From: Candidatus Edwardsbacteria bacterium
GTDB taxonomy: Bacteria > Edwardsbacteria > AC1 > JBFLXN01
Length of the DNA stretch: 12,346 bases
Assembly (NCBI GenBank): GCA_040755715.1
Contig: JBFLXN010000014.1
Span: 1 to 12,346, forward strand
Direction: 5' to 3'
Shown: positions 1 to 7,834 of the stretch, piece after piece
Position numbering within the stretch: position 1 is the first letter of the stretch
Layout of the letters: each line of letters opens with the position of its first letter
Made by a program: the position numbers and the translations under genes
Notes under the pieces: generated by a model
Seen by the model: only the letters and a program-made list of their open reading frames with translations
Databases searched by the model: none
Told to the model about the DNA's origin: nothing

Positions 1-331
1 CGAAATCCTCGGTTTTTACTAAAATTGCACCTCTTTGGATAAGCTTCGATATAATTTCATAATTTTTGCTGCCACCTTTCAGTCCCTCCTCAAGTATCTT
101 CTGGCCCATAGCCCCATCTGCAACCATTCCATCCTGATACACCTTAAAGTTAGCCACCTCTAATTTCTCAAAATATCTGGCTATTGAATCCCAGAAGCCA
201 GAGATAGTTTCTCTATGTTGCTTCCAAAACTTCTCCCCGAAACCTGCAATACCTCTTTTGTCCACCTGCCTAGCAATACTTCCAAGATCGGCACTCATGT
301 GGATGATTGGAACATAGATTAATTTTCGCAT
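1..331 (-). CDS. Hypothetical protein, N-terminal fragment (about 110 aa visible; gene continues beyond the window start)
   Basis: ATG at 331..329 on the minus strand overlaps the TAA stop (333..331) of the upstream 88-aa ORF as TAATG. I translated the frame by hand and it stays open to position 1: MRKLIYVPIIHMSADLGSIARQVDKRGIAGFGEKFWKQHRETISGFWDSIARYFEKLEVANFKVYQDGMVADGAMGQKILEEGLKGGSKNYEIISKLIQRGAILVKTEDF... No family recognised. It is absent from the ORF track because no stop falls within the window. Confidence 0.45.
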   Translation of the reverse strand, partial: MRKLIYVPIIHMSADLGSIARQVDKRGIAGFGEKFWKQHRETISGFWDSIARYFEKLEVANFKVYQDGMVADGAMGQKILEEGLKGGSKNYEIISKLIQRGAILVKTEDF

Positions 332-597
332 TATTTTCCTAATCCTTTAGCTTTTATTAAAAGTTCTGCTGTCTGTTTACGCAGGGTAGATATGGTTCTG
401 CAATTTTTACAATCCTCGTTTTTCTCATCATATTTTTCACAAGACAAAAGCATCTCCACCTCTTTCTTTAAGTGACTCGCCCTTTCGGCTTTATCAGTTA
501 CTGCCTTTGCCTCGTTGATATCGCGGGTCAATTCTTTAATGGTCCATTCCCTTTTTAGAAATATAGGGCACTTTATCTCTGGTTTTGGTTCTGCCAT
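331..597 (-). CDS. Small Cys-containing hypothetical protein (88 aa, Cys at 10, 53, 63, 66)
   Basis: ORF-track ORF. Its ATG (597..595) overlaps the TGA stop (599..597) of the upstream gene as ATGA, which indicates translational coupling. CxxC (CKNC) plus two further Cys suggest a metal site. No family recognised. Confidence 0.45.
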   Translation of the reverse strand: MAEPKPEIKCPIFLKREWTIKELTRDINEAKAVTDKAERASHLKKEVEMLLSCEKYDEKNEDCKNCRTISTLRKQTAELLIKAKGLGK

Positions 598-1598
598 CAG
601 CGTTTAACCTCTGGGATCTGTTTTTCGCTTCCTAACTTCTGCAATCTGACCTCCAATATATTATTATGGTATCTTCTCACAATTCCTTCGCTGTCAACTT
701 TTGCTGGAAGAGAAACCTCTTCATAGTAGTTAGATTCGGGAGTTTTACAAGAGACGGTAAGTCTATCTTCATCTACCCCTAATAATATATCCTCTTCCTG
801 GGCACCTTTTAATTCCATAATGATGTTTAGATGGTCGCCTTCATCAAAGATATCCAATAACAATTCCTCTTTATCTTTTTTTAATTTATCCCCTCCGATA
901 ATCCACCAGCTAAACATAACTTTCTTTCCTGTGGATTCATCAATCTTACATCTTTGGAATACTAAAACCGGAAAACCTATCAGCTCTTGAGCCGTTGGAT
1001 TAATAATATTTCTTACCCTGTGGAGAATATCCATATGATTTGGCGCATTATAGCTGTGAGCCAATTCGTCAATGGTGGCATGTCTATTTTGCCAGACAAA
1101 AAGAAGTATATTTTGGCTCTCAGGATCTAACTCTTTGGCAATCTTATCTATTCCCTCTTGATTTATTTCCAATAGGCTTCTTTCAAATATCTTATTTTTC
1201 CACATCTCTACATCTTTTACCATAATCCAGGCCTTTGAAGCAGTTGCACCGCCTTGATTTCTATAAGAGATACAAAGGGCGTCCTTACTTCTTAATGTAA
1301 AACCCCTCTGTTGAATGCTGATTCCTTTTATATTTTCTAAGGACGTCTGGAATATAATCCTCGCCGGCTGCCAAAGAAAAAGCCTCAGGTTAGTCAGGTA
1401 CAGATGCCCTGGTTTCCAGCCGCTGCGTAGATTATCTTTGTAAAAACCCGGATCGCTTAGTATAACCTCTTCATTCGCTTTTAATTCAGGCTTATTTTTC
1501 ATCTTTTCTGTAGTGTTTATAAGTAAAACCTGGATGTCTTGCACCACCGGGTTTGTTATCTTCATATTCTTTCCGTTTATATTTTGACCTTTTATCAA
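597..1598 (-). CDS. GRAM/PH-like domain + winged-helix-like segment + C-terminal Hsp20/alpha-crystallin domain fusion protein (GvpH-like small heat-shock protein, atypical architecture)
   Basis: The N-terminal region GWKPGHLYLTNLRLFLWQPARIIFQTSLENIKGISIQ matches the GRAM/bacterial-PH-like motif repeated twice in ORF 4599..5672. The middle segment NILLFVWQNRHATIDELAHSYNAPNHMDILHRV is HTH/wH-like. The C-terminal DIFDEGDHLNIIMELKGAQEEDILLGVDEDRLTVS...RRYHNNILEVRL is a clear alpha-crystallin domain. The track start at 1598 is a TTG, preceded by AGGGG 5 nt upstream. An alternative ATG at 1565 (MKITNPVV) exists. Confidence 0.7.
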   Translation of the reverse strand: MIKGQNINGKNMKITNPVVQDIQVLLINTTEKMKNKPELKANEEVILSDPGFYKDNLRSGWKPGHLYLTNLRLFLWQPARIIFQTSLENIKGISIQQRGFTLRSKDALCISYRNQGGATASKAWIMVKDVEMWKNKIFERSLLEINQEGIDKIAKELDPESQNILLFVWQNRHATIDELAHSYNAPNHMDILHRVRNIINPTAQELIGFPVLVFQRCKIDESTGKKVMFSWWIIGGDKLKKDKEELLLDIFDEGDHLNIIMELKGAQEEDILLGVDEDRLTVSCKTPESNYYEEVSLPAKVDSEGIVRRYHNNILEVRLQKLGSEKQIPEVKR

Positions 1599-1767
1599 AT
1601 TCTACCCCTGTAGAATGTATTATCTGGGCATCTTCACCAGTTGAGTATTTAACCGAATATCTTCTTCTCTTTTTTGCCCACTCATCCCAGTCCATAGCTG
1701 TGGAGTGTCTCACCTTTGTGCCGCGGCCAGTAGAATACCCTGAAGTTTTAGGTGTCTTGGATTTCAT
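1492..1767 (-). CDS. Possible small basic repeat-containing protein (91 aa); uncertain
   Basis: ATG at 1767 has AAAGGGA 5 nt upstream. Lys/Arg-rich, with internal repeats (GYSTGRG..HST / KYSTGED..HSTG). It overlaps the 5' end of the next gene by 73-107 nt depending on which start that gene uses. It may instead be untranslated leader. Confidence 0.25.
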   Translation of the reverse strand: MKSKTPKTSGYSTGRGTKVRHSTAMDWDEWAKKRRRYSVKYSTGEDAQIIHSTGVEFDKRSKYKRKEYEDNKPGGARHPGFTYKHYRKDEK

Positions 1768-1782
1768 TTATCCCTTTTTTTC

Positions 1783-2355
1783 CTATTTCCATTTCCAATT
1801 ACAGGTCTTCCAATCATCAGGCACAGAAGGATGGTCTAAAATTCCTGTTTTCCCGCCTGCGTTATCAGTCTCCTTGACTACGTCCTCCTCGTCGACTTTG
1901 GGACTTTGCGGGGCAGGGGACGGAGCTTCCTCACATGGTTCATCTTGAGAGGAATCGAGGGCTTCAGCTGCTTCTTCCTCTTCTACGACCTCTTCGAAGA
2001 CTATCCCGCATTTCGGACAAACTGTTGTGTTTTCTTTTACGGCTGTGCCACAGCTCACACATTCATATCCTTCTATCTCTTCTACTTCTTTTTTGGTCTC
2101 TTCAGTGCCCATACTACCTCCAAGTTCTTTCTCGCCCTCGCCTTCGCCCTTAACCTGTTCTTCTCCCAAGGAAGTAATCCTGTATAAAGCAAACCTACCG
2201 GGCGAAAGCCTTTCTATATACCCTTTCTCCCACAATTTTTTGCATATATCATAGGCATAATTTATTGTAACCCTTAAGTTCCCGGCAATAGTTACGGTAT
2301 TTCCCTGTTTAATTTCCTTAAATTTTTCTAAAATCTTTTTCTCGTTAGGGGTCGT
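1783..2355 (-). CDS. Winged-helix + zinc-ribbon transcriptional regulator with acidic linker and tail; start codon anomalous (ACG at the RBS-defined start site)
   Basis: The ORF track begins at a TTG (2235) that would cut a winged helix in half. Hand translation upstream stays in frame from the stop at 2361..2359 and gives KTTPNEKKILEKFKEIKQGNTVTIAGNLRVTINYAYDICKKLWEKGYIERLSPGRFALYRITSLGEEQV, a complete wH fold. A near-perfect RBS AAGGAGGT sits 6 nt before an ACG codon (2355..2353), and there is no ATG/GTG/TTG in between. Downstream come CVSCGTAVKENTTVCPKCG (a zinc ribbon) and a poly-acidic tail. Confidence 0.5.
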   Translation of the reverse strand, partial: TTPNEKKILEKFKEIKQGNTVTIAGNLRVTINYAYDICKKLWEKGYIERLSPGRFALYRITSLGEEQVKGEGEGEKELGGSMGTEETKKEVEEIEGYECVSCGTAVKENTTVCPKCGIVFEEVVEEEEAAEALDSSQDEPCEEAPSPAPQSPKVDEEDVVKETDNAGGKTGILDHPSVPDDWKTCNWKWK

Positions 2356-2405
2356 CTTTTACCTCCTTATGTTCTTGGTTATTATTCTATCCTTATGCCA
2401 ACATT

Positions 2406-2858
2406 TCAATATTCGATAGATACAGATTTCCACTTCTTTTCGGCTCTACTCCCTTTGCCTTGGCGCCCTACTTTTTCTTGAAGAGTAGTCAATCTATTGG
2501 GTCCACGATTACGAATTACCAACCACGACCCACGAGTAGGTCCAGATAATTTAATCTCGGCTCGAGAGTGAGGTCCGAGTTTTGTCTCCTCTAACACATC
2601 ACCTTCTAAGGTAAGCCTTCCATTTTCATCTATCCTGCCTTGACTTTCCATCATAGTAACTTCGAACTGTGAAAGGCGCGGGACCATGCTTTGCAGATGA
2701 TAAACAATCAAATATGGCCACCGCATGCTTCCTTTAATCCTTACTACTTTAATTCCCACTGGGCTTGCGAGATTTAATCCCGCTTCCCTTCGAATATTCG
2801 AAGGAATAGATAATCTACCCTCTTCATCAATTTCGCTAAATCCTTTTAACAGCGGCAT
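2406..2858 (-). CDS. MraZ/AbrB-type double swapped-hairpin (DxxGR-x-xP) DNA-binding protein, putative regulator
   Basis: Two copies of the AbrB/MraZ-type motif are present: [19 protein letters not shown] and [19 protein letters not shown]. The 150-aa length matches MraZ. ATG at 2858 overlaps the dnaK 3' end (stop TAG 2838..2836) by 23 nt. RBS weak. Confidence 0.5.
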
Positions 2859-4602
2859 CTTTTGTTTCTATCTTTAGATTTCTCTTTATCCGTTTAAACG
2901 CATTATAGACAATCTCAACCAGCTTTCTTAATTCATCAATTTTTACCCTGGTCTCTTTATATTCACCCTTGGATAAAGTTGTCTTTATTGCCAGGATTAG
3001 TTTCTCTATTTTTTCTACATCTGACCTATCTATTAGACCCTCTCCTTCTTCCAGAACCATCTCTGCTGCTTGTATCATACTTTCCGCTCGAATGCCCATT
3101 TGAATCTCTTCTTTTCGCTTTTGGTCTTCCTTGGCATGAATTCGGGCATCTTCTATCATCTCGTTAATCTGGTCCTTGGTCAGCCGGGAAGAAGAACTGA
3201 TCTGGATACTTTTTTCATTATCGGTATGTAAATCCAAGGCTCTGACTTGTAAAATCCCATTGGCATCTATATGGAATGTCACCTCAATCTGAGCTTCACC
3301 CCTTCGACCGGGTGGAATATCAGTAAGCTCAAACTTACCCAGACTTATATTATCGAAGCTCAGGAATCTCTCTCCCTGCAAGACATGGATATCGACCTGA
3401 GTCTGGTTATCTTTAGCTGTCGTAAATATCTGACTGCTGGATGTAGGAATGGTGGTATTTCTTTCTATGATCTTAGCAAATATCCCTCCCTCAGTCTCAA
3501 TTCCTAAAGAAAGGGGAGTAACGTCTAACAATACCACATCTTTTATTTCCCCAATCAAGATATTGGCTTGAATTGCTGCGCCAAGAGCCACTACCTCATC
3601 CGGATTTATATCCTTATAAGGTTCTTTGCCCAGAAGCTCTCGAGCGAGCTTTTGCACAGCAGGCATTCTGGTGGAGCCTCCTACCAAAACTACCCTGTCT
3701 ATCTGGCCGGGGTTGAGCTTTGCATCAGAAAGGACCTGTTTAGTAGGCTCTATCATCTTCTCTAATAAATCCCTGGTTAGCTCTTCAAACTGCTCTCTAC
3801 TCATAGTCAGATGCAGATCCATATCTTGTATGAGAAATGGGATTCTGATATCTGCAAACCTTTTTGTGGAAAGTTCTTTTTTTGCCTTCTCTGAAGCCTC
3901 TTTCAACCGCTGTAAAGCCACCCTATTTCTTCTTACATCCACTCCATGCAACTTCTGAAAATTATCAGCCAAATAATCCATTATCCTCTGGTCCCAATCA
4001 TCTCCGCCAAGATGTGTATTTCCCCCTACTGCCTTCACCTCAAACACGCCATTGCCCAACTCTAAAATAGATACATCGAAAGTGCCTCCACCCAAATCCC
4101 ATATTAGAATATAGTGTATATCCTGCTTGTGTAAGCCGTAGGCCAGGGAAGCAGCAGTAGGTTCATTTATAATCCGCATTACCTCTAATCCGGCTAAGGC
4201 GCCTGCCTCCATAGTCGCCTGGCGCTGGTTATCATTAAAATATGCAGGAACTGTAATTACTGCTTTCTCTATTTTCTCGCCCAAATAATCTTGCGCATCT
4301 TCCTTGACCTTACGAAGGATTAAGGCCGAAATCTCTTGGGGGGTAAATTTTCTCTCGTCAATCTCTACCCCATAATCAGTGCCCATCCGACGTTTAATAG
4401 ATGCAATGGTACGTTCTGGATTTGCAACTGCCTGGGTTCTGGCAAGATTGCCTATCAGCTGCCTCCCTCCATCGGCAAAGGCAACCACTGAAGGAGTAAG
4501 CCTTCCGCCTTCAGCATTGGGTATAATCTCAGGCCTCCCATTGTTTATAAAGGCGGCTACTGAAAAGGTAGTGCCTAAATCTATTCCTATTACCTTACTC
4601 AT
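2836..4602 (-). CDS. dnaK: Hsp70 molecular chaperone DnaK (589 aa)
   Basis: The canonical N-terminus is [18 protein letters not shown]. Actin-like ATPase motifs are present: [12 protein letters not shown] and [13 protein letters not shown]. The substrate-binding domain and helical lid follow. The ATG at 4602..4600 is preferred over the track's upstream extension ([10 protein letters not shown]...). That extension overlaps the preceding gene and precedes the conserved Hsp70 start. ATGA overlap with the stop of ORF 4599..5672. Confidence 0.95.
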
Positions 4603-5672
4603 TTGGCTACCTGGGCTATTTTCTTCTTTAACCGTGGGCTGACCCAGCCGCAGTTTACGCAACCCTTTTCTAATAGCTCTAAGGCGTTTGCCTTTTTTCC
4701 GCATTGAGGGCAGGCTTCTGTTCTTTCTCTAAATGATATGATTCGGGTAAGCGCCCTCTCCCACTCATACATTCCCTCTCCTGAAAAAGAGGCAACCTTT
4801 CTTTGAGAACCACCTTCACCCAGCCCTTGCGCGCAAGAGCTGGGTTCATATATTACGTCAAAGACCTTTTTCTTCTTTAATACCGGGCTCAAATTCCTTA
4901 CATCTATAGCAGAACCTAATATCTTTTCTGAAGGGACTTCAAAAGCCAATCTCTTTTCAAAATCATACCACCAGCATAATCTCTTATTTGTTATATACAG
5001 ATGACCGGGCTTCCAGATACCATCTGATGAGGCCATATGCCAGGCCTTGCCCTTGTGAGTAATCGTTTCTCCTTCTGTCAGGAAATCTAATGTCTCTTCC
5101 TCATATTCGGGTAGAATAAGGTTTTCATCAATTATAAGTCCGCCTAACTTTATCGCCTCTTTTATAGACTCACCTAATTTATCTATCTCCACAGACCGCA
5201 GACGCGCTAATCTATCATCCTTAAGAATAAGTAAGAGCGTATCTTCTTGTATCAAGAGCCCCTTTATCTCATCTAAAGAGGTTTGAAACATCACTTCATT
5301 AAGCTCTTGATTCATGAGCAGCAGTCTTTTATCAGTTAAATAAATCTGCCCCGGTCTCCAACTAACATAGATTCCTTTGGCATAAAAAAAAGAGCCCAAC
5401 ATCTTAAGTTTAAGCTCTTCTCCCTGGATTAAAGAAATCTCTTTTTTAGCTCTATTATCTTTTTCCCAGGCGCGAATCTTCTCATCCCATGCCTTCATCA
5501 TGCCATACTCGAGCATAGTCTCCATGCCGGCCAGGGCGGCTCTTAAATTAACACCGATTAAAGGGATGCCCGCCACAGAGATGATAATGTCAGCGTTGAT
5601 CACCAACCCCTTATCCAGGACCCTATCCAATAAATCAACCAATGTGACCCGTGCATCTCTGGTTGGCTCCAT
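4599..5672 (-). CDS. GvpA/J-family gas vesicle shell domain fused to two GRAM/PH-like domains and a C-terminal zinc ribbon (357 aa)
   Basis: N-terminal [48 protein letters not shown] is a textbook GvpA core (compare canonical [44 protein letters not shown]). Two GRAM-like units follow ([19 protein letters not shown]... and [17 protein letters not shown]...). The C-terminus [25 protein letters not shown] is a zinc ribbon nearly identical to the C-terminus of ORF 7469..7819. ATG at 5672 has AAAGGAG upstream. Confidence 0.8.
4819..4844. repeat. Second copy of the 26-bp palindrome (CCCAGCCCTTGCGCGCAAGAGCTGGG, 25/26 identical), in frame inside the GvpA-GRAM-ZnR gene
   Basis: On the minus strand it encodes PSSCAQGLG, between the second GRAM domain and the zinc ribbon. 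It is flanked by ttca.../...ttcata, as the other copy is. Confidence 0.75.
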
Positions 5673-5757
5673 ATGTCGCTTCGCTCCTTTATCAGAATTC
5701 AGAAGTCAGATTTTTCTATCCTCTGTCCTCTGTTACCTGTTTTTCTATGCTTTGGCT

Positions 5758-6549
5758 TTAGGCGAATGAGTATGGTGGCCAGGGGCCTGTAAATCGAACG
5801 ATCAACCCATTTTCTTTTTTAATCTTTTCTAAAACTTCGCCAAGCCTTTTGACATTTTCCTTAGCAACCAAACAGGATAAGTTCATGATCATCTGTAAGT
5901 TCTCATCTACTTTTTTAGCCTTATCTATATGAATATCAAAAACTTCTTTCTTTATCCGAGCATAAAAGTCCTTAAAATATTCATCGGCCTTTTTTCCCAT
6001 CTCTTTCCTTAATAGATTCTTTATCTTCTCTTCATACATATAGGCTGTGCCCGGTGGTTTAGACTTCAACTCCTCTTTCAAATTCTTAATCTCTGGGCTA
6101 TCTTCGGCTATTCTTTCAACCATAACCTTGGGATCCCATAAAATCTGGACTCCATATTCTTCTTTGCCCTTGACTTTATTTAATCTTTCTTTTAGATTCT
6201 GGTAATCTTTTTGCAGCCACTTTTTCATATTTTCTTTCGGGTCTATGCCTTCTTCGCCAATAATTATGGTATCAAATGCCAGAGGCAGGACAGTACCAAA
6301 CCTCTGCCAGGCATAATCCACTACCTTCTGGTGAGTCATTACCCAACCTTTTACAATATCTTTATCTTCTGATTCGTAGGGGTGAGGTTCACAGTTGTGA
6401 ACAACGGCTGAAATTTCCTGGTATGGAAGAGTGTAAACGTTGCTCCCATCAATTCCAATCTCACCCAGGCTTACCTTTTCGTTGCCATCAGCTATGCAGT
6501 AGAGATATATACCGTCGTTCACTTGGCTGTCTCCTTTATTTTTTCCCAT
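5758..6549 (-). CDS. gvpF: Gas vesicle protein GvpF/GvpL family
   Basis: N-terminal GIYLYCIADG is the GvpF/L YxYGx motif. The C-terminal RFTGPWPPYSFA is the hallmark GvpF/L ending. 263 aa. The start overlaps the gvpK 3' end by 31 nt. Confidence 0.88.
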   Translation of the reverse strand: MGKNKGDSQVNDGIYLYCIADGNEKVSLGEIGIDGSNVYTLPYQEISAVVHNCEPHPYESEDKDIVKGWVMTHQKVVDYAWQRFGTVLPLAFDTIIIGEEGIDPKENMKKWLQKDYQNLKERLNKVKGKEEYGVQILWDPKVMVERIAEDSPEIKNLKEELKSKPPGTAYMYEEKIKNLLRKEMGKKADEYFKDFYARIKKEVFDIHIDKAKKVDENLQMIMNLSCLVAKENVKRLGEVLEKIKKENGLIVRFTGPWPPYSFA

Positions 6550-6836
6550 CTCGTGGGATTAGCTATTTTATCTATAACATCGTTGACTATATTATCTAAA
6601 CCATCTCTCACTGATTGAACTGCCTCACCAACCCCTTGTTCCTCTTTTATATGCTCTATTGCGACGTCGAGTTCCTTAAGCGCTCTACCCAGACGTTCTA
6701 TCTCTTCTTCGTTTAGGCTTCCACCCTCCATTCGCTTTACCGCCTGAAGTTTAAGGGCATCTCTGATTATTTCAACCAAGGCAAGCACAAGGCCTAAAAC
6801 ACCGCTTTTAAGATTATCTTCATTGATATCTATCAT
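6519..6836 (-). CDS. gvpK: Gas vesicle protein GvpK
   Basis: GVLGLVLALVEIIRDALKLQAVKRMEGGSLNEEEIERLGRALKELD matches the conserved GvpK core (LxLVELLRQ...QAxRRxExGxLxxEEIERLG). ATGA overlap with the stop of the upstream Hsp20 gene. Confidence 0.85.
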   Translation of the reverse strand: MIDINEDNLKSGVLGLVLALVEIIRDALKLQAVKRMEGGSLNEEEIERLGRALKELDVAIEHIKEEQGVGEAVQSVRDGLDNIVNDVIDKIANPTRWEKIKETAK

Positions 6837-7420
6837 TTTTCTATTTTTACTTCTAAAATCCCATTCTTGTATGTTTTTTCTAGTTTTCCTTTAGATTCGC
6901 AGGGTAGTTTTAATTGCTGATGGTACTTGCGATCAGGAATATCTACTGATATTGCAAGGCTGTCTTTGACTAAATCAATTTTTATATCCTTTTCTTCAAT
7001 GCCTGGTATTTCAGCAATCACTTTAATATGATCTTCCTCATCAAAGATATCCGCTGGCCGCTCTTGAGGTGTTGGAGGGGGTGAGGGTTTTACTTCTGGT
7101 CTCTGTTTAGCAAAAGGTTTTCCTCTAAAGGCCCTTCCTCTTATGCCCGGAGGGATGCCGCCGGGGATACCCGAAGGCCTTCCTTCAGCTCTTTTCAAAG
7201 GGGCTTCTTTTATCTTACGCTCCACCTCTTTATCAACCTCCTTAAGCCTCTCTTTGAAAGCCGGGGATTTCTCCAGGCCTTTAATTAATCCCCCTAATCC
7301 GGGAATTACCTTGCCCAGACCTTTAAGTATTCCTCCTGCTACACTTTCAGATTCTTTTTCTCCCGCCTCGGGCGGGACATCCTCTGGTCGCTTTTTGTCT
7401 TTATCTTCTTTACCGGTCAT
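6833..7420 (-). CDS. gvpH: Hsp20/alpha-crystallin family protein, GvpH-like, with Gly/Pro-rich basic N-terminal region
   Basis: C-terminal ACD: DIFDEEDHIKVIAEIPGIEEKDIKIDLVKDSLAISVDIP...KTYKNGILEVKIEK. The N-terminal half is low complexity (GIPGGIPPGIRGRAFRGKPF). AAAGGTG RBS 7 nt before the ATG at 7420. Confidence 0.8.
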   Translation of the reverse strand: MTGKEDKDKKRPEDVPPEAGEKESESVAGGILKGLGKVIPGLGGLIKGLEKSPAFKERLKEVDKEVERKIKEAPLKRAEGRPSGIPGGIPPGIRGRAFRGKPFAKQRPEVKPSPPPTPQERPADIFDEEDHIKVIAEIPGIEEKDIKIDLVKDSLAISVDIPDRKYHQQLKLPCESKGKLEKTYKNGILEVKIEK

Positions 7421-7468
7421 ATTCTACACCTTTCTTTAGCTTTACTTGTTAAGCTGCTAGCTTATTTC

Positions 7469-7819
7469 TCATTCTGCCTTTATATCTTTTGCCTTGGCGC
7501 TTACCCAGCCACACCAGGGACAGCCCTCATCAAGTAATTCTTCTGCCAGAACTTTTTTGCCGCACTGTGGACAAAGTTCTTTACCCTTCATGGCTTCTTT
7601 CCAGGCTTCTGTTTCCACATTAGTCCCTGATGGAAACTCAAGGCCATACTTTGCTGCTGTCTCAAAAGAAGCCAGGGCTGCCCTTATCTTAATTCCCAAA
7701 AGCTCTACTCCGGCAACAGATATGGCGATATCCGCATTAATCACCAGGCCTTTGTCTAAAACCCGGTCTATGACATCAACCAAAGTAACACTTGCATCTT
7801 TTGTCGCTTCTATTGCCAT
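7469..7819 (-). CDS. gvpA: GvpA/J-family gas vesicle structural protein with C-terminal zinc-ribbon extension (116 aa)
   Basis: [49 protein letters not shown] is the GvpA/GvpJ core. The C-terminus is CPQCGKKVLAEELLDEGCPWCGWVS (CxxC...CxxC). Strong RBS AAGGAGG (7834..7828) sits 8 nt before the ATG at 7819. Whether this is the major GvpA or a J/M-type minor paralog cannot be decided from sequence alone. Confidence 0.85.
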   Translation of the reverse strand: MAIEATKDASVTLVDVIDRVLDKGLVINADIAISVAGVELLGIKIRAALASFETAAKYGLEFPSGTNVETEAWKEAMKGKELCPQCGKKVLAEELLDEGCPWCGWVSAKAKDIKAE

Positions 7820-7827
7820 TTCTATTG

Positions 7828-7834
7828 CCTCCTT
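7828..7834 (-). promoter_or_regulatory. Shine-Dalgarno AAGGAGG for the gvpA-family gene, embedded in the 3' end of the upstream ZnF gene
   Basis: Plus-strand cctcctt at 7828..7834 is the reverse complement of AAGGAGG. It sits 8 nt upstream of the ATG at 7819. Confidence 0.6.

Follow-up and report, generated by a model that had tools for sequence, protein, structure and literature searches.

A GvpM-type gas-vesicle protein with two PH-like domains and a predicted zinc ribbon in a gene cluster of Candidatus Edwardsbacteria

We will describe a gas-vesicle (gvp) gene cluster found in a stretch of 12,346 nucleotides (nt) from Candidatus Edwardsbacteria bacterium (assembly GCA_040755715.1, contig JBFLXN010000014.1, positions 1–12,346), which we call the window. 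All its long open reading frames (ORFs) lie on the minus strand and together they form one gvp cluster; every feature given below is on that strand. Two of the proteins are our main subject. M* is the protein of 357 amino acids (aa) encoded by the ORF 4599..5672, and J* is the 116-aa protein encoded by 7469..7819. By its sequence matches M* is of the GvpM type, and it carries a long C-terminal extension made of two PH-like domains (PH1 and PH2) and a predicted zinc ribbon (ZnR). J* is of the GvpJ type and has a similar ribbon in its C-terminal part. A third protein of the cluster, which we call PH-wH-Hsp20, has an N-terminal PH domain related to those of M*.

Relatives of M* were looked for by scanning one genome per species, and 368 genomes were found to have them. 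Our comparisons of loci cover the best 80 (labelled L with a number), in all of which approximately residues 1–350 of M* are matched. The presence of gvpA and gvpN was counted in the stretches fetched for these loci, with flanks of ±10 kb. Homologous proteins are labelled P with a number. An alignment of 48 full-length homologs of M*, which are 52–82% identical to the window protein, was used for AlphaFold2 (AF2) models and for conservation. The spacing of the ribbon was compared in 132 proteins, 62 of them J* and 70 M*. P0001 is 100% identical to M*: it comes from a Candidatus Edwardsbacteria metagenome-assembled genome (MAG) and has the database name 'gas vesicle protein'.

The gene of M* begins with the ATG at 5672 and has a ribosome-binding site, AAAGGAG, 8–9 nt upstream. 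Its TGA stop codon and the ATG of the following DnaK gene overlap (ATGA at 4599–4602), so that the two genes appear to be translationally coupled. Residues 1–76 (5445..5672) correspond to a GvpM-like shell domain with a conserved W-rich helix, as indicated by Pfam, NCBIfam and PDB matches. Pfam Gas_vesicle (PF00741) is found at residues 10–48 with 62.4 bits (E 4.5e-17; cutoff 25), and both GvpA structures in the PDB are matched in a sequence search (8gbs has E 1e-7 with M*). The NCBIfam model halo_gas_GvpM (NF046091) aligns over its full length, residues 1–67 of M* with positions 1–67 of 67, and gives 97 bits; this is a haloarchaeal model of the 'exception' type, with a cutoff of 109. On the other NCBIfam models M* scores less, 55.8 bits for GvpJ and 41.2 bits for GvpA. 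AF2 predicts this N-terminal part poorly (pLDDT, the predicted local confidence, is below 50 for residues 1–45), as it is expected for a monomer. The first-pass annotation had read here a canonical GvpA core: the alignment to the gas-vesicle family stands, but the model scores place the domain with GvpM.

J* gives 61.3 bits with Pfam Gas_vesicle (cutoff 25). Its NCBIfam scores are 98.3 bits for halo_gas_GvpJ (NF046090; cutoff 125), 57.8 for GvpM and 56.8 for GvpA. The N-termini of M* and J* are 67% identical (E 7e-28). J* homologs from different phyla share 77–94% identity, which suggests horizontal transfer of the whole cluster, and no other protein of the set is conserved as strongly as J*, whose mean core identity across phyla is 84%. 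J* and M* form separate tight clades (mean core identity 84% and 77% respectively), and canonical GvpA forms another one: core identity to Anabaena GvpA averages 72% for the canonical short GvpA of related loci, 49% for J* and 39% for M*. From these comparisons we classify M* as GvpM-type and J* as GvpJ-type; neither of them is a GvpA.

Two simpler descriptions were tried and rejected. A plain 'GvpA fusion' disagrees with the NCBIfam scores, which favour GvpM and GvpJ, and with the separation of both clades from canonical GvpA. A recent origin of M* and J* as paralogs was rejected as well, since their N-termini match different models and fall in separate tight clades. It had been proposed that the larger of two paralogs acquired an insert of about 230 aa between the shell domain and the ribbon; this story is too simple, because by model scores and clades the split between J and M appears to be old. 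The ribbon is either ancestral to J and M or it has been exchanged between them.

We turn now to the extension of M*. PH1 comprises residues 85–178 (5139..5420) and PH2 residues 204–317 (4722..5063). They are joined by an acidic linker, residues 179–203 (5064..5138), with low pLDDT at 189–194. In the AF2 model there are two units, residues 87–176 and 204–316, with pLDDT 76–90. Each has seven strands and a C-terminal helix: strands at 87–160 and a helix at 163–176 in PH1, strands at 204–297 and a helix at 301–316 in PH2. This is the seven-stranded beta-sandwich capped by a C-terminal helix which defines the PH-like superfold. When the model was compared with the PDB by Foldseek, it matched proteins with tandem PH domains, namely BBS5 (1.6e-8), FARP1 (DH-PH-PH), Dok7 (PH-PTB) and FACT Spt16M; a BBS5 profile also matches residues 76–145. 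The two GRAM/PH-like units noticed in the first reading are thus borne out: the repeated motif segments are present at residues 105–117 in PH1 and 220–232 in PH2, BLAST shows a relationship between the two domains (E 4e-7), and both are predicted to have a PH fold. Since structure and profile searches concur, we take the predicted PH-like fold of both units as established.

The sequence subfamily of these domains is less sharply defined. Pfam GRAM (PF02893) is found in M* at residues 215–234 with 18.1 bits (E 0.0024), below its gathering score of 23.6. Among the 48 homologs GRAM is matched in 44 at E ≤ 0.01 (the best at 3.9e-8), Vps36-GLUE in 46, bPH_3 in 27 and PH in 19. The expected assignment of the repeated motif to GRAM or PH by profile search therefore holds for the family, but the window protein itself stays below threshold: the assignment comes from the family-level matches and the predicted fold, not from its own score. 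'GRAM/GLUE-like' is a fair name for the subfamily as judged from its profile matches, and strict Pfam membership does not apply to M* of the window. With the GRAM, Vps36-GLUE and BBS5 branch there are three differences: M* of the window stays below the Pfam gathering scores of this branch, the charge of the gvp subfamily is not markedly basic, and this subfamily is essentially restricted to gvp clusters. In PH2 seven residues are invariant across the 48 homologs (W220, G223, Y226, R231, L232, W234 and D237). Some close relatives, P0028, P0031 and P0116 (the last one in L076, 9396..10184), have 243–268 aa and are 75–84% identical to M*; they lack PH1 and the acidic linker and keep PH2 and the ribbon.

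The zinc ribbon of M* occupies residues 318–346 (4635..4721). Its core, CPQC...CVNCGWVS at residues 321–345, has two CxxC knuckles, and the four cysteines C321, C324, C338 and C341 are invariant in the 48 homologs. AF2 gives short strands at residues 318–320 and 327–329, as in a ribbon hairpin. Pfam ribbon models match this region below threshold only. A C-terminal zinc ribbon had been predicted at first sight, and the conserved ligands and hairpin strands agree with that prediction. The ribbon of J*, CPQCGKKVLAEELLDEGCPWCGWVS (CPQC...CPWCGWVS), is found at residues 83–107 (7499..7573) and is 65% identical to that of M* (E 6e-15 for the two tails); the CPWCGW form is characteristic of J*. In both proteins it is a 25-aa module, CPxC-x12-CxxCGWxS with ELL..G in the middle, which has the same spacing in 62 of 62 J* and 70 of 70 M* proteins. 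According to their sequences the two ribbons are one homologous module, predicted to bind zinc. The first-pass annotation had the 116-aa protein ending in the same ribbon as M*; the module is indeed the same, but J* does not literally end there, since a tail of 9 aa follows residue 107.

The PH-wH-Hsp20 protein is GvpH-like and is found at 597..1565, as indicated by AF2, Foldseek and hhalign. Its ORF opens with a TTG at 1598, which would give 333 aa (597..1598), and the ATG at 1565 gives 322 aa. The true start is probably at 1565 or further downstream, since its homologs have about 290–310 aa and the gene called in a Logan contig has 322 aa. AF2 predicts a PH domain at residues 34–130, a helical domain at 136–222 and an alpha-crystallin domain at 237–310. 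In Foldseek the latter matches 4rzk, the alpha-crystallin domain of Sulfolobus Hsp20.1 (E 2.2e-7, target TM-score TMt 0.85), so that the fold typical of small heat-shock proteins is found in 597..1565; PH-like matches appear as well. With the NCBIfam model of archaeal Hsp20 the protein has 70 bits, the cutoff being 140. The winged-helix (wH) domain at about 136–222 is assigned from the AF2 secondary-structure pattern, and none of the top 50 Foldseek matches supports it. It had been noted that the GRAM/PH unit of M* reappears in the protein of 597..1598, and this is clearly so: the repeated segments of M* match the N-terminus of the Hsp20 protein with BLAST E 8e-13, and its PH domain aligns with PH1 in hhalign with a probability of 98.7% (E 2.9e-16).

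M* and J* are clustered with gvpK, gvpL/F, gvpG and gvpO, as it is expected of GvpJ/GvpM accessory genes. Starting from the high-coordinate end of the window, we find the C-terminal end of a GvpL/F paralog lying upstream, which the window truncates (12158..12346, Pfam GvpL_GvpF 43.1 bits), a 98-aa ORF with a GIY-YIG nuclease domain (11725..12021, Pfam 53.2 bits), GvpG (11444..11728, Pfam GvpG 84.3 bits), a double zinc-ribbon protein (11233..11439, Pfam DZR 36.8 bits) and GvpO (10938..11207, Pfam GvpO 66.9 bits). They are followed by a tandem ArsA/Get3-type ATPase (8931..10895, Pfam ArsA_ATPase 464.7 bits in two stretches), a GvpG-like protein (8326..8901, Pfam GvpG 38 bits) and a stand-alone 130-aa zinc-finger protein of the DnaJ type (7833..8225, Pfam DnaJ_CXXCXGXG 43.4 bits). 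Between J* and M* there are an Hsp20 with a disordered N-terminal region (6833..7420, Pfam HSP20 24.2 bits, NCBIfam archaeal Hsp20 73 bits), GvpK (6519..6836, Pfam GvpK 68 bits) and GvpL/F, called as a gene of 254 aa (5758..6522, Pfam GvpL_GvpF 220.6 bits, NCBIfam GvpL 201 bits). After M* comes DnaK/Hsp70 (2836..4602, Pfam HSP70 714.6 bits). Two putative regulators of 150 aa each (1783..2235 and 2406..2858) lie between DnaK and PH-wH-Hsp20. One of them combines a zinc ribbon with an acidic tail; the other has a weak MraZ/AbrB-like N-terminus, shares 23 nt with the end of the DnaK gene and recurs in nine related loci.

In the 80 loci the conserved core order is J*, Hsp20 or PH-Hsp20, GvpK, GvpL/F, M*, often DnaK, and PH-wH-Hsp20. 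Some archaea and Anaerolineales have an alternative order, J*, M*, PH-Hsp20, K and L/F. The pair of J* and M* is present in every locus with enough flanking sequence. DnaK directly follows M* in 28 loci, GvpL/F precedes it in 49, and in 58 an ORF is best assigned to PH-wH-Hsp20, although some of these ORFs span just the wH-Hsp20 part.

The locus L002, a 98% identical relative, shows a further part of such a cluster, with three more GvpL/F paralogs and a Cdc48-type AAA ATPase (50..1267). One of the paralogs (1306..2346) continues at its C-terminus into a J-domain with HPD (Pfam DnaJ 44.8 bits). With DnaK and the separate DnaJ-type zinc finger, this amounts to a dedicated Hsp70 system in pieces inside the gvp cluster. 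Tandem AAA+ ATPases of the Cdc48 family are found in 39 of the 80 loci (in L010, at 13877..16036, with NCBIfam CDC48 911 bits). In L002 the full upstream GvpL/F gene (3105..3983) runs straight into GvpG (3946..4251). There is no GIY-YIG gene between them; in the window this ORF therefore looks like a small element that entered the operon recently. Two other loci have additional proteins next to M*. In Desulfosporosinus (L057, 9655..10038) a stand-alone PH protein of 127 aa is found directly upstream of it. In a Methanotrichaceae MAG (L080, 11502..11873) a 123-aa protein with a CPSCGK..LLESGC ribbon is found directly downstream.

The architecture is not rare, as our search for its taxonomic spread has shown, and databases name the relatives 'gas vesicle protein'. 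The best 80 loci come from more than 12 bacterial phyla and from two archaeal groups, ANME-1 Methanophagales and Methanotrichaceae. The bacterial hosts include Nitrospirota (98% identical), Actinomycetota, Atribacterota, Bacteroidales, Chloroflexota, Desulfobacterota, Verrucomicrobiota, Ignavibacteria, Acidobacteria and Ca. Scalindua. Cultured Firmicutes are also present: Marinisporobacter balticus, Desulfosporosinus fructosivorans, Anaerobacterium chartisolvens, Anaerosacchariphilus and a Clostridium sp. A search with residues 78–357 of M* against 1.84 billion representatives gave 121 clusters at E ≤ 1e-3, and most of these matches begin at about residue 78–90 of the target, i.e. behind a GvpM-like N-terminus. 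Such a small number of clusters in this position indicates that the PH-PH-ZnR module is dedicated to gvp clusters. A peculiarity of the distribution lies in the labels: that of the 100% identical protein is Candidatus Edwardsbacteria, that of the 98% identical locus L002 is Nitrospirota. Either a MAG has been mis-binned or mis-classified, or the cluster has recently moved between phyla.

No canonical gvpA was found in the window or in L002 (±10 kb). A review states that GvpN is present in all gvp clusters; the window has no gvpN. Among the 80 loci gvpA is found in 18 and gvpN in 19; the two are associated and usually lie at the upstream edge, and several of the fetched stretches open with gvpN. 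Because they sit at locus edges elsewhere, the absence of gvpA from the window probably reflects the window size, and in most loci without it the gene is probably just outside the fetched stretch. Six compact loci (L024, L057, L060, L064, L068 and L080) have no canonical gvpA within ±10 kb, and on each side unrelated genes extend over at least about 6 kb. Their clusters consist of J*, M*, Hsp20 or wH-Hsp20, GvpK and GvpL/F, in some cases with GvpG. L057 and L080, read gene by gene, are also without gvpN and gvpO. In such clusters either the shell gene is elsewhere in the genome or the module works without it. Methanothrix thermoacetophila, which is described as gas-vacuolate, has a cluster with four gvpA genes, N, O and LF and, nearby, a separate cluster G-'A'-'M'-K-LF; the expression of both falls in parallel during growth by direct interspecies electron transfer (PMC10470525). 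The order of the latter cluster agrees with the Methanotrichaceae loci L078 and L080, which suggests that the J*/M* module may act together with a canonical GvpA whose gene lies elsewhere.

The closest known system is that of haloarchaea, such as gvpFGHIJKLM of Halobacterium salinarum. The N-termini of M* and J* match the haloarchaeal GvpM and GvpJ models reciprocally best, and both systems are linked to gvpK, gvpL/F, gvpG, gvpO and a gene of the Hsp20 type (GvpH-like). GvpH is itself an Hsp20-like protein. In haloarchaea GvpM (84 aa) and GvpJ (114 aa) end in short tails which are not known to contain folded domains or cysteine ribbons. In contrast M* has about 280 additional residues, the PH-PH-ZnR extension, and J* carries a ribbon; in rounded figures their scores also stay below the haloarchaeal cutoffs (97 against 109 and 98 against 125). 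A further likeness is that the C-terminal parts of the haloarchaeal proteins bind partners. In GvpM the N-terminal 25 aa are bound by GvpL and the C-terminal 25 aa by GvpH and GvpF, and GvpH prevents its aggregation (PMC7688916); in GvpJ the hydrophilic C-terminal part binds GvpG, GvpH and GvpL (PMC8716928).

Other elaborations of minor Gvp proteins have been described. A 2024 review lists as atypical only the GvpJ of Anabaena flos-aquae, with six 21-aa repeats, and a GvpK with a GvpA-like domain (PMC10903477). They resemble our case as lineage-specific C-terminal elaborations of minor GvpA homologs with no assigned function, but they consist of repeats or Gvp-Gvp fusions and involve neither PH-like domains nor zinc ribbons. 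In 2010 Castillo and Saier reported gvp clusters which, besides gvpF/L, G, J, K and M, contain hsp20 and a two-domain homolog of ArsA (PMC2963123); PH or ZnR fusions, DnaK, J-domain-GvpL/F and Cdc48-like components are not described there. Our literature search found no paper linking gas vesicles to GRAM, PH or zinc-ribbon domains. This agrees with the first-pass annotation, for which such a fusion was not a described extension of GvpJ or GvpM. Precomputed Pfam annotations display the domains, and so do some product names at JGI, for instance 'Zn finger protein HypA/HybF': the data on this architecture are thus public but uninterpreted.

We propose that PH-PH-ZnR is a protein adaptor placed on a GvpM-type subunit of the vesicle nucleus or cone, which would recruit the chaperones and accessory proteins of the cluster. 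We give this proposal a probability of about one half. In model organisms GvpJ and GvpM are essential minor components; like GvpS they are found in the bicones and are absent from the cylinder (PMC10903477). The hydrophobic GvpA-like N-terminal domains of M* and J* would likewise be part of the nucleus or the conical cap, as GvpJ and GvpM are elsewhere, and we infer a topology with their C-termini towards the cytoplasm. There folded modules would stand in place of the short hydrophilic tails which bind partners: J and M each have a ribbon, and M has two PH-like domains besides. PH-PH-ZnR could keep the aggregation-prone M, and also J, in a soluble complex before assembly and recruit the helpers of the cluster. 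The candidate helpers are PH-wH-Hsp20, as an analogue of GvpH, GvpL/F, GvpK and possibly the co-translated DnaK. The common ribbon may be a shared handle on J and M, either for one partner or for pairing J with M, and docking would take place during nucleation or cap formation. The PH domain common to M* and the Hsp20 protein fits this adaptor, as does the translational coupling of M* with DnaK. It is also consistent with the stand-alone PH protein beside M* in Desulfosporosinus and with the extra ribbon protein in Methanotrichaceae. As possible roles for the fusion it had been suggested at first that it tethers vesicles, nucleates their assembly at a membrane or marks a use other than buoyancy. 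The context rather favours docking between proteins, with the chaperones encoded in the cluster as partners.

Several observations weigh against the adaptor. In the AF2 model of M* the arrangement of the domains with respect to each other has no confidence (predicted TM-score, pTM, 0.40), and the N-terminal domain is modelled with low confidence as well. The natural variants without PH1 show that some lineages can dispense with it, and in some lineages the Hsp20 partner has no PH domain; a strict pairing of PH1 with the PH domain of the Hsp20 protein cannot therefore be universal. Lipid binding is frequent among PH and GRAM domains; PH2 is mildly basic (median isoelectric point, pI, of 8.8) and the tail of M* is basic, which leaves room for membrane binding.

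These last points bring us to the possibility of a membrane tether, which we find rather unlikely. The PH/GRAM-like domains and the basic tail would bind anionic lipids, M* would anchor or nucleate vesicles at a membrane, and the PH domain of the Hsp20 protein would target the chaperone to the same membrane site. The charges of the domains across the 48 homologs do not decide on a lipid-binding signature: PH1 is neutral (median pI 7.1), neither PH domain is strongly polybasic, and the linker, with a median net charge of -7, would oppose the binding of anionic lipids. Besides, the PH-like fold binds proteins equally commonly, as in pICln, TFIIH p62, PTB and Ran-binding domains, and the gas-vesicle literature covered reports no membrane step.

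The example of pICln, a PH-fold assembly chaperone of Sm proteins, suggests another doubtful explanation. The PH domains might act in cis, capping the beta-edges or the hydrophobic face of the GvpA-like domain of M* itself or of a neighbouring J* or GvpA, until the subunit is incorporated, with DnaK, ArsA or Cdc48 as possible drivers of the release. The likeness to pICln is an analogy alone, as its sequence has no specific relationship with the PH domains of M*. A chaperone of this kind overlaps with the adaptor and the two are inseparable in silico; AF2 does not dock the N-terminal domain, where confidence is low, on either PH domain.

A different shell appears improbable. In the compact clusters without gvpA and gvpN, J-ZnR could be the main wall and M* a cap or decoration, and buoyancy would perhaps not be the purpose. 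Six such loci with flanks on both sides, two of them also lacking gvpN and gvpO, speak for this explanation, together with the high conservation of J*; many hosts live in sediment or in the subsurface, where a use in flotation is doubtful. However, gvpA or gvpN are present in 18–19 related loci and probably lie just outside many of the stretches, and Methanothrix keeps its gvpA genes, N and O in a separate cluster nearby with parallel regulation. Furthermore, haloarchaeal GvpA, GvpJ and GvpM are not interchangeable. A bolder form, with an equally small chance of being right, is that J-ZnR, M-PH-PH-ZnR, PH-Hsp20, GvpK and GvpL/F are a self-contained nanostructure kit. J-ZnR would form its wall, with the ribbon and the PH domains outside, and it would be built by Hsp70, the J-domain protein, ArsA and Cdc48 instead of GvpN. 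Its hosts would be those of compact clusters: Desulfosporosinus, Dethiobacter, ANME-1, Methanotrichaceae and Mariniphaga. If this were true, we would be dealing with a gas-vesicle-derived compartment or a membrane-tethered organelle of sediment anaerobes.

Finally, a regulatory role, in which the zinc ribbons and the nearby wH domains would link gvp expression with assembly by binding DNA or RNA, is very improbable: the ribbon has a weak likeness to the ribosomal proteins eL37 and S27ae and the cluster has wH-like and AbrB/MraZ-like proteins, but the ribosomal matches are all far below threshold, the conserved ELL..G and CGW match no known nucleic-acid motif, and the ribbon is borne by two hydrophobic structural homologs.

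A broad group of anaerobes, which includes cultured Firmicutes and methanogen-related archaea, thus shares a type of gvp cluster not covered in the gas-vesicle literature that we searched. The nucleation of gas vesicles and the roles of GvpJ and GvpM are open questions, and progress has been slow because these proteins are tiny, hydrophobic and prone to aggregation. M* and J* bring to this problem folded, soluble and strongly conserved handles, two PH-like domains and a predicted zinc ribbon, with matching partner modules on the Hsp20 encoded in the cluster and a dedicated Hsp70 system alongside. Such defined domains would lend themselves to partner mapping, tagging and co-crystallisation, and they may offer attachment points at the vesicle cap for the engineering of acoustic reporter genes.

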